Of a stretch of 28,771 nucleotides of DNA, positions 4,371 to 9,955 are shown in pieces. This DNA is from an uncultured Bacilli bacterium (lineage in GTDB: Bacteria > Bacillota_I > Bacilli_A > RF39 > UBA660): assembly GCA_947589695.1 (NCBI GenBank), contig CANQBY010000001.1, forward strand, positions 1 to 28,771, read 5' to 3'. The notes beneath the pieces were generated by a model that was not told where the DNA came from, did not search any database, and saw nothing but the letters and a program-made list of their open reading frames with translations. A program made the translations under genes and the position numbers. The first letter of the stretch is position 1; each line of letters starts with the position of its first letter.

Positions 4371-5453
4371 ATGAAAACAAAATGGATGAATTATATATTA
4401 TTTTTAGGGCCAATAAGTATTTTAATTATTATTTCTTTACTTAATATGAAAATAGTAGGAATAAATAATGCGATGTATAAAAGTTATTTTATGAAACAAA
4501 GTTTATGGTTTATACTAGGTTTTATAGTAATGTTTATCATAATTAAATTAAAGCCCAAATTACTGTTTAAATATAGTAAATATCTATATTATTTTAATGT
4601 GTTTTTGTTAATATTAGTTTTATTAGTGGGAAAAACAATAAATGGTTCAAAAGCCTGGTTTGATTTTTATTTCTTTTCTTTTCAACCAAGTGAATTAATG
4701 AAATTTTCCCTTACTTTATATTTAAGTCAAATATTAGCCAATTATAAAAAACATGATTTTAAAAGTGAACTTAAATTTATTTTAAAAGCCATATTTTTAA
4801 TGCTTATTCCCTCTTTATTTGTCTTTTTAGAACCAGATACCGGGGCTATTATAATATATTTCTTAATAACTTTAGGGATTATTATGATATATAAAATAAA
4901 TATTAAATGGTATATATTTTTAGCTATGATTCTCATATTATTAGGGGGTGGGTTCTTATATCTTTATTATTTTAATAAAGATTTGTTAATAAAGTTAATT
5001 GGAACTACTTTCTTTTACCGGATGGATAGAATATTTACCTTTGTTAATAAAGATTCATTTCAATTAGATAGAGCTTTAATTGCGATAGGAACAGCAGGAC
5101 TCATTAGTACTAAGCATTTTATTTATATACCAGAAGCGCCAACTGATTTTATAATTGCCCTTTCAATTAGTAATTTAGGAATTATTAGCTTAATAATAAT
5201 CTTAGGAGCATTCTTAAGTTTAGATGTTTACTTTTTATATAAATTATTTACAAATAAAAATATGAAATATAAAATGTTTATGGCTGGATTCTTAATGATG
5301 TTTATATTTGCCCAAATTCAAAATATTGGTATGAATATAGGACTGTTTCCCATTATTGGACTTCCCCTACCATTTGTTAGTTATGGAGGGACAAATATCT
5401 TAGTTTATTTTATGTTTTTGGGAATAATTGGCAGTAAAAAAGAATTTTTTTAA
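4371..5453 (+). CDS. FtsW/RodA/SpoVE (SEDS) peptidoglycan glycosyltransferase
   Basis: Multi-TM protein with NGSKAW, FQPSELMK, LEPDTG, EAPTDFI, GLFPIIGLPLPFVSYGGT motifs; paralogue identity not resolvable. Confidence 0.92.
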   Translation: MKTKWMNYILFLGPISILIIISLLNMKIVGINNAMYKSYFMKQSLWFILGFIVMFIIIKLKPKLLFKYSKYLYYFNVFLLILVLLVGKTINGSKAWFDFYFFSFQPSELMKFSLTLYLSQILANYKKHDFKSELKFILKAIFLMLIPSLFVFLEPDTGAIIIYFLITLGIIMIYKINIKWYIFLAMILILLGGGFLYLYYFNKDLLIKLIGTTFFYRMDRIFTFVNKDSFQLDRALIAIGTAGLISTKHFIYIPEAPTDFIIALSISNLGIISLIIILGAFLSLDVYFLYKLFTNKNMKYKMFMAGFLMMFIFAQIQNIGMNIGLFPIIGLPLPFVSYGGTNILVYFMFLGIIGSKKEFF

Positions 5454-5461
5454 ATTTCTAC

Positions 5462-5490
5462 TTGACAAAAATTGGCTTTTGTAGTAGTAT
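5462..5490 (+). promoter_or_regulatory. sigma-A promoter with no downstream protein gene
   Basis: TTGACA (5462-5467), 17 nt, TAGTAT (5485-5490). Confidence 0.65.
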
Positions 5491-5495
5491 ACATC

Positions 5496-5644
5496 CTCGA
5501 ACATTTAATTTGTTTGAATAAATTCTTTTCCATTCTTTGATATACTTCCTTTACTTAACTAATATCAAATTCTACTAATTCAGGCATTATTAAATGTTTA
5601 TTCATTTGTTTAGAACAAGCAACTTCGGTTGCTTGCTTTTTTTT
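5496..5644 (+). ncRNA. Candidate ~145-nt small RNA (long hairpin plus intrinsic terminator)
   Basis: AACATTTAAT 5500-5509 pairs with ATTAAATGTT 5589-5598; TGTTTGAAT pairs with ATTCAGGCA (two G-U); TTTGATAT/ATATCAAA closes a C/U-rich loop; promoter upstream and UUCG terminator downstream. Confidence 0.5.
5616..5644 (+). terminator. Intrinsic terminator
   Basis: CAAGCAAC-TTCG-GTTGCTTG (8 bp stem, C-UUCG-G loop) followed by C and a T run. Confidence 0.8.
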
Positions 5645-5697
5645 GTTTAAAAAAGATAGGTTTTAAAACCTATCAATATAAAGTAATAAAAATATAA

Positions 5698-5735
5698 CTT
5701 GCCCTTAGATAAAAAGGTTTAGCACTAAAGGCAAG
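5698..5735 (-). terminator. Probable terminator of the 474-aa gene
   Basis: CTTGCCCTTAG 5698-5708 / CTAAAGGCAAG 5725-5735 inverted repeat, a G-U pair on the minus strand. Confidence 0.45.
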
Positions 5736-5787
5736 AGAAATATTAAATTACACTACACTCCATCTAAAGTGCTCTACCATACTTCGT

Positions 5788-7212
5788 CTATGAGACTTCG
5801 TATGGATTTGTCATATTTCCTGGACCTGCAGTATCAGGACTTTTTGTTTTGAACTTTGTACCAGCTTTGAGATTTATTACTGGGCGCACACCACGAGTGT
5901 CGCTCACGTCGCTGCGGCCGAGGGAGCCATCACTATACACACCGAACACGTAAGCATAACCGTCATCAAAGCCACGCGGAGACATTGTCCAATAATTTCG
6001 GCCTGTATATAAGTAATAACTATCATTAGGTTGTCCAGCTAATCCTCCGGCAAAAACTACTTCATCTGCTGTGATTAAGCCTACTGGTACCGGTAATTTG
6101 CCATTGCCTTGTCCAGCACTATCACTTGTAGTATATAAATCTCTTTTCTTATTTTTGCATGTAAATGTTGGTTCTTGAGTAGTGTCCCAATCTGTGCTAC
6201 TAGGATTTAAAAATCTATCATATGCTCCATATATTGTTGGGAAAGTACCATACCCTTGGTTTGTATAAATAATATTTCCATGATTTGAAGAAGCTTTCGA
6301 TCTATCTCCACAAAAACCTGTTGCTCCATCTATTTTATTTTTATACTCTTCATTTTTACCTATTTTATTATCATACCATTCTTTTATTGTATCTAATATA
6401 GTACTATTTGTCACACTATCTGACATCTCATTGTTATATGTAGTTGATGGAGATTTTTTTTCACCATCATACATATAGCCTACATACTTATTATCGTTAA
6501 AAGTATCATTAAATTGTACATTAGCGTCATCATTAATAGATGTACCTTTACCAGTTTTTTGAGCAGTATCACCAGAATAAATAAGTCTTATAGTACCATC
6601 ACCATTAATTCGAATAATTCGCCAATACATATCAGCAAACTTGACCCAGTTATTATCCACTGTGCCTCGATAATAATATGTTATTCCGTAATCGTCTGTT
6701 CCTTTAAATAATCCGCTATTACTATCAGCACAACTTCCACATGCTGTACTTGAAAAACTTTCTTTGCCTTCTCGAGCTTCCTCTGTACTCAATCCTAATG
6801 CTGCCAAAGTTTTTAATGTAGCATTGGTAAAATAAACATAACATTTTGTTCCTTTTTTAGTTATATCAATTCTTACCTTATCTCCTGTATATTCCATATT
6901 ATTTGTTATTCTTTCTTCTGTACTTCCAACTATACAATAACTCTTTTCATTATCTATTTCATAATTACCTTTGGGTATTTCTTCTATTAATACATCATTT
7001 TTACCTGTACTTTTATACATAGCAATAACATTTAAATCAGCACTTGTATAATTTATTGTTCCTTCGGCTAACTTTACACTATCAACTGTTTTATATTTAG
7101 CTTTTGCAAATAATAAATTACTTACTGCAAGAAGTGCTACTCCCATTGCTAAGCCATATAAAAACCATTTTCCTTTTTTACTATTACTAATATCTAGTTT
7201 TTCGAATTTCAT
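5788..7212 (-). CDS. Membrane-anchored surface protein with C-terminal CLec-like domain, putative DGR target, 474 aa
   Basis: N-terminal hydrophobic anchor; YYYRGTVDNNWVKF...WRIIRINGDG, GLITADEV and C-terminal YWTMSP...AYVFGV..DG....V..TRGVRPVINL, the pattern of DGR-target C-type-lectin-fold domains. Confidence 0.8.
   Translation of the reverse strand: MKFEKLDISNSKKGKWFLYGLAMGVALLAVSNLLFAKAKYKTVDSVKLAEGTINYTSADLNVIAMYKSTGKNDVLIEEIPKGNYEIDNEKSYCIVGSTEERITNNMEYTGDKVRIDITKKGTKCYVYFTNATLKTLAALGLSTEEAREGKESFSSTACGSCADSNSGLFKGTDDYGITYYYRGTVDNNWVKFADMYWRIIRINGDGTIRLIYSGDTAQKTGKGTSINDDANVQFNDTFNDNKYVGYMYDGEKKSPSTTYNNEMSDSVTNSTILDTIKEWYDNKIGKNEEYKNKIDGATGFCGDRSKASSNHGNIIYTNQGYGTFPTIYGAYDRFLNPSSTDWDTTQEPTFTCKNKKRDLYTTSDSAGQGNGKLPVPVGLITADEVVFAGGLAGQPNDSYYLYTGRNYWTMSPRGFDDGYAYVFGVYSDGSLGRSDVSDTRGVRPVINLKAGTKFKTKSPDTAGPGNMTNPYEVS
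5881..6003 (-). other. Putative DGR variable repeat (VR)
   Basis: 60 G/C in 100 nt at 5881-5980 (hand count) in an AT-rich gene; 31 consecutive codons are 27 NNY plus 4 GTG, none ending in A. Confidence 0.75.
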
Positions 7213-7282
7213 TCCTTACCCTACTTCCTTTCTTAAGTTATACTTCATTTACTTATTGATTAATAATATGTAATATATTTAT

Positions 7283-7350
7283 AACCTATTTTGGCTTATA
7301 TTAATATAATAATCCATTTTGGGTTAAAAGTCAATAATCTATTTTAGATT
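7283..7350. promoter_or_regulatory. Three related 15-bp quasi-palindromic operator boxes
   Basis: AACCTATTTTGGCTT 7283-7297, AATCCATTTTGGGTT 7311-7325, AATCTATTTTAGATT 7336-7350. Confidence 0.65.
7306..7334 (-). promoter_or_regulatory. sigma-A promoter of the 474-aa gene
   Basis: TTGACT (7334-7329), 17 nt, TATTAT (7311-7306); the middle operator occupies the spacer. Confidence 0.65.
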
Positions 7351-7383
7351 ATGATAAAGTTATTTTATTGAGGATGGTAAGCT

Positions 7384-7608
7384 ATGAATAGATTAAAAGA
7401 ATTAAGAGAAGATAGAGATTTATTACAGAAAGATATTGCTAAATATCTTAATATGTCTCAGACTGGGTATTCGAAGTATGAAGTAGAGACAAATGATATT
7501 CCAACGGAAGTATTAAAAAAACTAGCATTATTTTATAATACTAGTATTGATTATTTGCTGTATCAAACGGATGAGAGAAAACCTTATCCCAAAAGTATTG
7601 TTGAATAG
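7384..7608 (+). CDS. XRE/Cro-C1 helix-turn-helix transcriptional regulator, 74 aa
   Basis: RLKELREDRDLLQKDIAKYLNMSQTGYSKYEVETNDIPTEVLKKLALFYNTSIDYLL is an HTH_3-type pattern. Confidence 0.92.
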   Translation: MNRLKELREDRDLLQKDIAKYLNMSQTGYSKYEVETNDIPTEVLKKLALFYNTSIDYLLYQTDERKPYPKSIVE

Positions 7609-7632
7609 TATTCTAAATTGAATACTTTTTTT
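7607..7632 (+). terminator. Terminator of the XRE gene
   Basis: AGTATTC-TAAATT-GAATACT followed by a T run. Confidence 0.6.
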
Positions 7633-7641
7633 ATTCATAAT

Positions 7642-7669
7642 AAAAGCACCAAGTTTTAGAACTCAGTGC
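7642..7669 (-). terminator. Minus-strand terminator (cdaA-cdaR operon and/or short leader RNA)
   Basis: GCACTGAG-TTCTAAAA-CTTGGTGC-TTTT on the minus strand (two G-U pairs). Confidence 0.6.
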
Positions 7670-7763
7670 CTATTTACACTGTAAGTAGGCATTAGGTTAC
7701 AACTCCTAACGCTTACTTATATTTATTATAACAAATATTTAGGATAATACAAGATTTTTTTTA

Positions 7764-9140
7764 TTATGAATTAGTTATTTTAACCCGAACTGTTGATGAT
7801 ACTACATAGGTTAAGCGAGGGTCATTATTAACTATTTTAACGGGAACATCATAATATTCATCTCGAGCAGTATAGCCTTCAAGATCGATATAGGCATTAA
7901 TGTTACTTTCAGATACATTATCGATAACAGATTGAACACCTTTTACAATAACATTAATACTATCGGTTCCAATAATATTTGCACTTAAACCACTGGCTAA
8001 GTTTTGTTGAGATATAGTAGAAATGTTAATATCTTTTTGTTTTTCATCACCAAAAGTTACAGTTATATTAGCTTTGGTTTCACTAATGCTTCGAACGCCA
8101 CTAGGACGATTAATAGTAACATTATAAGAACGAGTACCACTGCCACCTTGACCATCAACATTGATAGTTACAGGAACATTATTAATACCACTGATAGTTT
8201 CTTCATCACCATAAATAGTTACGGAATGATTATTACTATTATTTATAAGAATGGAAGCAATAGCTTTTCCAGTTACTAAGTTACCAGTAGTTAAAACATT
8301 AATTGGAACACTTTTAGAATAAGTATCAAGTGTAATAGAAGCAGTTAGGGTTGTAGGAACTATTTCGACTTCTTCAATAATATGACCTTTGCTATCATAA
8401 GCTAGAAGAGGAATATTATCAATATCATAAGTTCCCGCGTCATTTAAACTATTATCACGCAAATCAATTAAAGCTTTAACAGTCGCAATATTATCTAACG
8501 AACCTTTACTACCTTTAACTACAACTTCACTTTTCGATAATTCAACATTTTCCACACTTAATCTTTCATTTAGATAATCAACATTGACTAAATCATAATT
8601 AATAGTTTTAGTAACACTTATTTTATCTTTAATTGTTACCGAAACATAAGAAGGATCTAATTTATAATCGATAGAATCGATAGATTTAGTGTATGATAAG
8701 TAAACCCGATAAGCAGAATCACGAGCTTCGTAATCGGATAAATCTAAAATAACAGCATTTGTTCCTAATTGTTTGGCTAAGAGAATATCGCTTTTACGAC
8801 CAATTAAGACAATATCAACAGTCTCGGGGATACCTTCAATAACATAAGCTTCTTCATTATAATTAGCTTTAACGGGAACATTAGTAATTACTTCGGCTTC
8901 AGATTCTACTAAAGTTATAACCCGTGAGTCAATTAGTAAAAACATAATAACAGCAAGTATTAAAGAAACATAAATAATAAAATTAGGTCGAGATATAATA
9001 TAATCTAGTTTTAAATTATGAGTTTTTAAATATTCATTAATATTAAAAATTAAACGACTTATAGGGGTAACTATTAATTTATCTAAGATACGATATAGAC
9101 CAATAAAGATGTTTTTAAAAAGTTTAATTATACTTTTCAT
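7764..9140 (-). CDS. cdaR: YbbR/CdaR-family diadenylate cyclase regulator
   Basis: N-terminal TM followed by repeated YbbR-like beta domains; directly coupled (TAATG) behind cdaA. Confidence 0.85.
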   Translation of the reverse strand: MKSIIKLFKNIFIGLYRILDKLIVTPISRLIFNINEYLKTHNLKLDYIISRPNFIIYVSLILAVIMFLLIDSRVITLVESEAEVITNVPVKANYNEEAYVIEGIPETVDIVLIGRKSDILLAKQLGTNAVILDLSDYEARDSAYRVYLSYTKSIDSIDYKLDPSYVSVTIKDKISVTKTINYDLVNVDYLNERLSVENVELSKSEVVVKGSKGSLDNIATVKALIDLRDNSLNDAGTYDIDNIPLLAYDSKGHIIEEVEIVPTTLTASITLDTYSKSVPINVLTTGNLVTGKAIASILINNSNNHSVTIYGDEETISGINNVPVTINVDGQGGSGTRSYNVTINRPSGVRSISETKANITVTFGDEKQKDINISTISQQNLASGLSANIIGTDSINVIVKGVQSVIDNVSESNINAYIDLEGYTARDEYYDVPVKIVNNDPRLTYVVSSTVRVKITNS

Positions 9141-9955
9141 TATTCTTCACCTGCACTATCTTTGTTTTCAGCTTCATAGAAGACTTCGGGTCTTGGATTT
9201 AAAGCGTCAATTAATAACATCCGAAATTCATCTAAAGTTAGATTGTAATTTAATTCCCCATCAACAGCAATACTTAAACGACCATTTTCTTCCGAAACAA
9301 CTAAGGCGATGGCATCACTTTCTTCGGCAATACCTAAAGCAGCCCGGTGCCGAGTTCCTAAACGTTTGGAAATGGTATCACTCATACTAGTTTTAAAGAC
9401 AGCTCCAGCGACAGTAATTCGATCTCCTTGTAAAATTACCCCACCATCATGAAGAGGTCCATTAGGGAAAAAGATAGTCTCTAATAAATCACTGGATAAA
9501 TCAGCATAAACTTTGGTTGCAGGTTCAATATATTCTTGTAAAGATATTTCCCTTTCAATTACAATTAAGGCTCCAATCCTATTACGTTTAAAATATTCAA
9601 TAGATTTCATAATTTCATATACTACTTTTTCGCGTTCATCAATCGTTAATACTTTATGTCTTCCAAGTAGTTGAGTACGACCAATAGATTCTAAGACACT
9701 TCTAATTTCTGGTTGAAAAATAACAATAATAGCTAGAGGTCCCCATTCTAAACAGTATTGAAGGATTATACCTACAGTATATAAATTTAATAAATCACTT
9801 AATAATTTTATTAATAAAACTAAGATAACTCCTTTAAATATTAAAACCATTTTAATATTATTTTTAATATTTTTAAGGATGAAATAAAATACGAGCCAAA
9901 CAACACCAATATCGATTATTTTAGTGATGATTTCCCATATCATACTTAATGTCAT
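9140..9955 (-). CDS. cdaA: Diadenylate cyclase CdaA (DacA/YbbP)
   Basis: Three N-terminal TMs, IVIFQPEIR, GALIVIER, PLHDGGV (DGA-like) and GTRHRAA motifs. Confidence 0.95.
   Translation of the reverse strand: MTLSMIWEIITKIIDIGVVWLVFYFILKNIKNNIKMVLIFKGVILVLLIKLLSDLLNLYTVGIILQYCLEWGPLAIIVIFQPEIRSVLESIGRTQLLGRHKVLTIDEREKVVYEIMKSIEYFKRNRIGALIVIEREISLQEYIEPATKVYADLSSDLLETIFFPNGPLHDGGVILQGDRITVAGAVFKTSMSDTISKRLGTRHRAALGIAEESDAIALVVSEENGRLSIAVDGELNYNLTLDEFRMLLIDALNPRPEVFYEAENKDSAGEE

Follow-up and report, generated by a model that had tools for sequence, protein, structure and literature searches.

A probable multi-copy module pairing a small repressor with a diversity-generating retroelement target in small-genome gut Bacilli

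We analysed a 28,771-nucleotide stretch of DNA from an uncultured Bacilli bacterium (contig C1, hereafter the window), in which the interval between the SEDS gene rodA/FtsW and the cdaR-cdaA genes holds two protein-coding genes, a minus-strand gene for a 474-aa protein and a plus-strand gene for a 74-aa protein with an HTH_3 helix-turn-helix (HTH) domain. The larger protein is a target of a diversity-generating retroelement (DGR) and carries a variable region (VR) near its C-terminus. The window belongs to a 1.13-Mb metagenome-assembled genome of 159 contigs (71% complete, ~25% GC), and the public DNA runs that hold its sequence are from rabbit gut, at ~3x depth and with fragmented contigs that break at the VR; no RNA run was among the listed holders. 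As a complete comparison genome we used that of the sister and nearest species (G018; 1.3 Mb, 99% complete). A preliminary description of the window had placed a unit with several layers of control between a SEDS gene and cdaR; both of these genes are found there, and each of the components that it listed is present, at or near the position it gave. On balance we consider it likely that positions 5640-7633 are one copy of a genus-specific, multi-copy module of three parts, namely a repressor, a surface protein rewritten by a DGR and a 3' tail. The features of the module are as follows.

~5640-7633: recurrent module, comprising the XRE gene with operator boxes, the target gene and the 3' tail
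5646-5738, minus strand: 3' element, made up of hairpin 1, a linker and terminator hairpin 2 with a T-run
5655-5674, minus strand: terminator hairpin 2, with a T-run
5675-5697, minus strand: AT-rich linker of 23 nt between hairpin 1 and the terminator hairpin
5698-5735, minus strand: hairpin 1, with an 11-bp stem and a 16-nt loop
5745-5787, minus strand: extra 43-nt segment of the 3' untranslated region (UTR), here called part A, directly after the stop codon
5788-7212, minus strand: DGR target gene, 474 aa, with a transmembrane (TM) helix, a small beta domain and a DUF6273 / C-type-lectin-like domain
5881-5983, minus strand: VR, GC-rich, running from GTCTCCG to a GGTGTGCGCC(CA) boundary that resembles an initiation of mutagenic homing (IMH) sequence
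7283-7297, 7311-7325 and 7336-7350: three operator-like boxes of 15 bp each, spanning 7283-7350
7306-7334, minus strand: predicted target promoter, TTGACT-17-TATTAT, whose -35 (AGTCAA on the plus strand) lies at the same place in paralogous intergenic regions
7384-7608, plus strand: XRE-family single-HTH protein, 74 aa (HTH_3, PF01381, E = 1.8e-13)
7607-7633, plus strand: hairpin resembling a terminator, with a T-run, immediately following the XRE stop codon and forming the right end of the module

The same arrangement recurs throughout the genome. Similarity between loci at the DNA level begins at about 5640, with the terminator that follows the target, and stops at about 7607, at the XRE stop codon, and the copies are dispersed singly, each with its own promoter. 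Searches with phmmer recovered 47 open reading frames (ORFs) of the target family and 24 XRE paralogs, 18 of which are divergent from a target within 600 bp; at least seven further targets have a less similar small HTH gene in the same divergent position, which brings the paired targets to at least 25. In G018, a divergent HTH_3 gene lies no more than 1 kb upstream of 30 of the 40 targets, compared with roughly 1.4 expected by a rough chance estimate, and most of these genes are 100–160 nt from the inferred 5' end of the target. The target family was present in all 18 of the genomes of the genus that were searched, with 10–71 matches each, and was essentially missing from 12 other sampled families of the class. 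Thus the core of the unit that had been proposed, with its XRE gene, operators, target and 3' hairpins, does recur as a unit across loci and genomes.

As a separate observation on the regulators, G018 has ~104 HTH_3 domain matches in its 1.3-Mb genome, and among the 89 listed, 56 belong to genes divergent from a target. The target-linked HTH_3 genes are an unusually large part of the regulators of this small genome.

An AlphaFold2 model of the target, built on 32 homologs (mean predicted local distance difference test score, pLDDT, of 82), consists of an N-terminal helix (residues 13–39), a small beta domain and a large domain at residues ~137–474. The helix is hydrophobic and has lysines ahead of it. 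The Pfam match to DUF6273 (E = 0.007) falls below the cut-off. The top VIA-align hit of the model was the N-terminal DUF6273 domain of the Thomasclavelia ramosa IgA peptidase (9qa6; Z = 12.9 over 192 residues), followed by Treponema TvpA (Z = 5.2), dozens of C-type lectin domains over residues ~190–450 (Z 4–4.6) and Mtd (Z = 3.9). With Foldseek against the PDB the IgA peptidase was the sole confident match, and the lectin matches come from the exhaustive aligner. The VR falls at residues ~411–444, C-terminal on this C-type-lectin-type fold. From the model, the product is likely to be a membrane-anchored protein with a diversifiable binding head, predicted to face outward and to have a ligand. 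Published work describes DUF6273 in receptor-binding proteins of gut phages, where it is a lectin-like domain targeted by DGRs (PMC10743442), and at the N-terminus of the T. ramosa IgA peptidase (PMC12402451; PDB 9qa6). These domains, among them the tentaclins and Mtd-like targets of gut Firmicute phages, have their fold in common with the target head. Here, however, the domain is C-terminal in a membrane-anchored cellular protein that has neither tail nor peptidase domains, and the family is expanded to 10–71 copies per genome.

The 3' part of the target gene has ~45 look-alikes in the genome, seven of which are non-coding, rich in asparagine codons and different from the window sequence chiefly where they carry A. 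We read these seven as template repeats (TRs), each lying in a stand-alone template-RNA gene of ~265 nt. Each of these genes has a GGTTAATCTA-type start and a TR of ~105 nt, which opens with GTCTCCG in six of the seven, and after the TR comes a conserved structured 3' domain and then a terminator; a TATAAT-type promoter precedes five of the seven. When the window VR was aligned with the seven TRs, both of its boundaries proved common to them, with GGTGTGCGCC as the GC-rich 3' boundary in the VR and in all seven TRs. Over the 3'-anchored 47 nt of the VR, which contain 15 template adenines, all ten mismatches to the TR C49a fall at template adenines (P = 5.8e-7). The template-RNA genes and the only reverse transcriptase (RT) gene of the genome lie at the following positions.

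C43:5373-7264 (locus L009): DGR core operon, encoding a 150-aa MutS-domain-I protein, Avd and RT, translationally coupled
C49:1197-2486: template-RNA genes, four in tandem
C114:3605-3873: template-RNA gene
C2:4294-4567: template-RNA gene
C2:15860-16123: template-RNA gene (these four template loci are L191-L194)

The RT gene is the single RVT_1 gene of the genome (E = 6.7e-21). Upstream of it on C43 lie Avd (bAvd, E = 8.5e-10; its 39.5 bits are just under the Pfam cut-off of 40) and a gene with a MutS_I domain (E = 2e-6), and the genes overlap. This MSL-Avd-RT operon is syntenic in at least 25 related genomes (loci L020-L045), with intact reading frames, a MYG1-like gene upstream and a gene for a 397-aa protein downstream. 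No template-like sequence was found within 6 kb of the RT in these at least 25 genomes, and in the genome under study all the template-RNA genes are far from the RT, on three other contigs. The proposal that the window gene is targeted by a DGR located at a distance is therefore borne out, with RT and Avd on one other contig and the TRs on three more. Relatives also have tandem arrays of template-RNA genes, in some cases with ~10 or more consecutive matches (G001:C16, G003:C17 and G016:C20). At C114:3605-4260, a template-RNA gene comes next after a target 3' end with a part A tail, both on one strand, so that template and target adjoin in this instance.

The 3' element directly follows the stop codon of at least 16 targets and is 85–92% identical at 20 or more loci, compared with 60–70% for the coding regions. 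Within it the linker is identical in 18 aligned copies, except for a 2-nt deletion in one copy and a change in the length of a short T-run in three. The hairpin region (5655-5735) folds with z = -4.8. A covariance model found 23 copies in this genome and 26 in G018, with weaker matches in other species, and those copies that could be placed adjoin target stop codons. In an alignment of 37 copies, which was itself fitted to the model, 98.9% of cells are paired and compensatory changes occur at 17 of the 19 pairs. Hairpin 1 begins, in most copies, 85–100 nt from the IMH-like end of the VR; at the window locus this spacing is 147 nt because the 43-nt part A is inserted. Part A itself has matches on C104, C101, C110, C71, C114 and C41, and is common to a second type of target 3' end. 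The 3' element was absent from the template RNAs in a comparison with all seven TRs, and we rejected homology between the target tail and the 3' domain of the template RNAs, as none was evident when the two were compared. Searches of Rfam at gathering and E-value thresholds gave no credible family for the element.

The element is predicted, from its terminator hairpin and T-run, to end the target transcript. A second role is probable because it is conserved far better than a terminator requires, and the obvious candidate, by analogy, is a counterpart of the homing inverted repeat of Bordetella phage BPP-1. Target recognition in BPP-1 involves the IMH and a downstream GC-rich inverted repeat or cruciform, and the inverted repeat promotes homing. 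As in BPP-1, a GC-rich boundary is present in both VR and TR, and an inverted repeat stands downstream of the VR only. Here, in contrast, the hairpin has an 11-bp stem and a loop of 14–17 nt, lies beyond the stop codon at 85–147 nt past the VR, and is followed by a near-invariant AT-rich linker and a terminator; a homing role for it would be a candidate function by this analogy.

The XRE protein scores 50.7 bits for HTH_3, where the cut-off is 23. Of the three boxes, the first coincides with the predicted start of the target transcript, the second takes up the spacer between the -35 and -10 of the target promoter, and the third lies beyond the -35, adjoining the XRE promoter region. The boxes have no other zero-mismatch copy in the 28.8-kb window, a count that is partly circular in that the pattern was derived from the same boxes. 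Short-XRE paralogs on C58, C6, C65, C16 and C152 and in G018 have in common a three-box layout around the target -35, with a box immediately past the -10, another in the spacer and a third immediately beyond the -35 on the side of the XRE start, and in each the box sequence, which is partly palindromic, is a different one. The XRE proteins themselves come in two forms, a single-HTH form of ~75–86 aa (the window locus, C6, C58, C65, C16 and C152) and a tandem double-HTH form of ~150 aa; the paralogs are built on a common scaffold whose C-terminal tail is conserved, and most of their variation falls in the recognition helix.

Taken together, these features suggest how the module might work. By its position, the XRE protein is presumed to be a repressor that binds the three boxes of the divergent promoter region, and, given that box 2 occupies the -35/-10 spacer and box 1 the start of the transcript, its binding would shut the target promoter; through box 3 it would probably also repress its own promoter. 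Since both the box sequence and the recognition helix differ from one paralog to the next, gating would be separate for each target, by what we predict to be private repressor/operator pairs. The gated product would be a membrane-anchored extracellular protein with a DUF6273 / C-type-lectin-like head, whose C-terminal VR would be rewritten in trans by a split DGR. In such a DGR the template-less MSL-Avd-RT operon would act with stand-alone template-RNA genes that supply the TRs from elsewhere in the genome, singly or in tandem arrays. The 3' tail would end the transcript and may in addition serve as a mark by which the retroelement or an RNA-binding factor recognizes the gene.

Several observations weigh against parts of this reading. 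Over the whole VR (104 nt), the best assembled template shows 21 mismatches at A and 11 at other bases, the latter all in the 5' half, and most other paralogs have a weak adenine-specific signal or none against the seven assembled templates. About seven of the ~33 evaluable targets have no HTH gene upstream. When the intergenic regions of 25 XRE-target pairs were compared with shuffled sequences by an unbiased repeat score, C58, C24, C101 and C65 alone were clearly positive, and most loci were non-significant; the score is underpowered in AT-rich DNA, and the operator reading rests on the aligned layout of the paralogs and not on this score. As for the 3' element, it is conserved in sequence no further than in this species and G018, and its hairpin is 85–147 nt from the VR, unlike that of BPP-1, which is adjacent.

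The mismatches in particular could mean that the VR is a relic, such that the family diversifies by divergence of and recombination between paralogs and the retroelement no longer acts on the gene. Most paralogs have no clean template match, as this would predict, and at the same position in G018 the target is 52% identical to that of the window while the genes around it are 85–93% identical (rodA 85%, cdaR 92%, with the XRE at 93–96%), which suggests, as far as sequence comparison goes, swapping or very fast divergence of the target alone. We nevertheless regard a relic as unlikely. The run of ten adenine-only differences in the 3' part of the VR is hard to square with it, the MSL-Avd-RT frames are intact and conserved, and the template-RNA genes retain promoters, IMH-like ends and 3' domains. 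Templates are also probably missing from so incomplete an assembly, and the 11 non-adenine mismatches therefore point either to a cognate template that was not assembled or to a VR of which only the 3' part was recently rewritten.

If the three-part module is taken one step further, the split DGR could be viewed as a receptor repertoire. One RT operon and its template arrays would serve 40–70 dispersed lectin-head genes, the 3' tail would be the address by which cDNA finds remote VRs, and the private XRE/operator pairs would allow independent, possibly stochastic, switching of each gene. We offer this larger picture as tentative and think it somewhat doubtful as a whole.

The site in which the window module lies differs between relatives. 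The neighbouring features are as follows.

4371-5453, plus strand: rodA/FtsW (SEDS), left flanking gene
5462-5644, plus strand: small RNA (sRNA) gene, with a TTGACA-17-TAGTAT promoter (5462-5490), a long hairpin of ~105 nt and a terminator at 5616-5635
7640-7735, minus strand: switch-like RNA unit downstream of cdaR, with an extended -10 TGTTATAAT (7725-7733), a hairpin at 7682-7719 and a terminator at 7644-7671
7764-9140, minus strand: cdaR (YbbR), right flanking gene (cdaR-cdaA span 7764-9955)

A module is present between rodA and cdaR in G018, G006, G016 and G013, is inverted in G009, and is absent from G017 and G004, where rodA is adjacent to cdaR with no module between them. The sRNA lies beside rodA in both of the empty-site genomes, G017 and G004, and is a single-copy element in 24 of 25 genomes of the genus, with a ~105-nt core that is almost invariant and terminator stems that vary. 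In G009 the inverted module lies between rodA and the sRNA, so that the sRNA is on the other side of the module. The switch-like RNA occurs once in the genome under study and is conserved in the closest species only, namely G018, G017 (at the empty site) and, in part, G013; its first stem shows wobble and compensatory changes in these relatives. Both RNAs fold well (z = -5.3 for the sRNA unit and -4.1 for the switch-like unit), and Rfam, at the thresholds used for the 3' element, gave no credible family for either. Because both are present at empty sites and do not recur with the module copies, the two flanking RNAs are elements of the chromosomal backbone and not parts of the module. Comparison of the sites indicates that modules are gained, lost or flipped between these two elements, and the window module would occupy the gap between two small, conserved and convergent RNA genes.

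The preliminary description had counted both RNAs as parts of a self-contained cassette, in which they would add control of the target by antisense pairing and attenuation to that by the repressor. What stands of that cassette is a DGR target unit with a presumed repressor, as the XRE gene and operators recur with targets across the family; the sRNA does not, being single-copy, found also where the site is empty and, in one species, located at the opposite end of the unit, and the switch-like RNA is likewise found at an empty site. The idea had some appeal, since the two RNAs are real, face the module and fold well. The apical loop of the sRNA carries an anti-Shine-Dalgarno-like CUUCCUUU, and its positions 5541-5557 are complementary at 16 of 17 positions to the target 5' UTR (7239-7255), which is the best match in the genome, with ~0.08 expected by chance. 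In G018, moreover, the XRE gene and the adjoining small RNA at the rodA-cdaR locus are duplicated together. However, the modules that occupy this locus in G018, G006 and G013 do not have the complementary site, the predicted duplexes of the sRNA with 5' regions of the target family are no stronger than those with other genes (P = 0.11), and neither RNA recurs at the other 40 or more modules. Such five-layered control is thus very unlikely. Small ORFs on the minus strand of the sRNA were considered and rejected; the frame is not conserved, as the window has a 2-nt insertion relative to relatives.

Prophages commonly encode XRE repressors that have a DYLLG..TD tail, which would count towards the module being a mobile or phage-derived selfish unit with an immunity-type repressor and a former receptor-binding protein. 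Its presence, absence and inversion at one chromosomal site, its dozens of dispersed copies and the use of DUF6273 heads as DGR targets in phage receptor-binding proteins (PMC10743442) are in keeping with such an origin, but we consider it the least probable explanation, given that the module contains no recombinase, terminal repeats or phage genes and has no recombinase beside it, that the N-terminal transmembrane anchor fits a cell-surface protein, and that the family is kept in 18 of 18 genomes of the genus together with a vertically inherited, syntenic RT operon. An integron-type gene cassette was also rejected, as the modules are single and dispersed, have their own promoters and lack a recombinase in or beside the unit.

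The three-part module has recognizable relatives among known systems. MSL DGRs correspond to Architecture D of Wu et al. 2018, which includes the DGR of Legionella pneumophila (PMC5758913). The system described here resembles them in its MSL-Avd-RT gene set, its adenine-specific differences between TR and VR, the GC-rich IMH-like 3' boundary, a lectin-like fold that bears the VR at its C-terminus, and a setting that is cellular and not phage, in which the targets are non-adjacent. It differs from them in that at least 25 genomes have no TR within 6 kb of the RT, that the templates are stand-alone RNA genes, often in tandem arrays, and that nearly every target is paired with its own XRE gene; it also has dozens of candidate targets per genome, whereas the maximum in a survey of DGRs was eight per DGR (PMC5758913). 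Metagenome mining is reported to be blind to remote targets (PMC8144416). Like the system here, the DGRs of Treponema denticola (TvpA) and Thiohalocapsa PB-PSB1 serve several remote targets in trans, and these are surface-exposed proteins of the C-type-lectin fold, TvpA being among the structural matches of the window target. The 15 targets of the Thiohalocapsa DGRs, with some trans activity, were treated as remarkable (PMC10907252). In those two systems, however, there are up to ~15 targets, the templates lie within the DGR loci, and neither paired repressors nor a conserved 3' hairpin-linker tail has been described.

With regard to its regulation, the module recalls the XRE switches of the Cro/CI and controller (C-protein) types, in which a small single-HTH protein likewise goes with several copies of a partly palindromic box, placed over the regulated promoter and next to that of the regulator itself. 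Those switches control phage or restriction genes, whereas here the candidate target of control is a hypervariable surface protein, and we predict from the sequences ~25–60 such pairs per small genome, with private operators. A literature search on DGRs in RFN20/Tenericutes, on multiple template repeats and on repressor-controlled DGR targets found nothing relevant, and the split architecture, the number of candidate targets and the arrangement of one repressor per target are not described in the literature that we searched.

In this genus of small-genome gut Bacilli, dozens of genes belong to a single DGR target family, the templates are RNA genes of their own at a distance from the RT, and nearly every target is paired with a presumed repressor of its own. 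If the module works as proposed, three questions would become directly testable, namely by what means a DGR reaches targets far from it, what function the conserved tail next to the VR has, and whether expression of hypervariable surface proteins is restricted to one at a time. The genus would also be a source of natural pairs of repressor and operator, dozens of them per genome and ~25 in this assembly, with apparently different specificities. Were the receptor-repertoire view to prove true, the system would amount to a bacterial counterpart of the loci for antigenic variation or adaptive receptors and would take up at least 5% of a 1.2-Mb genome. Finally, we observed that the cdaA-cdaR operon at the window locus has no glmM downstream.

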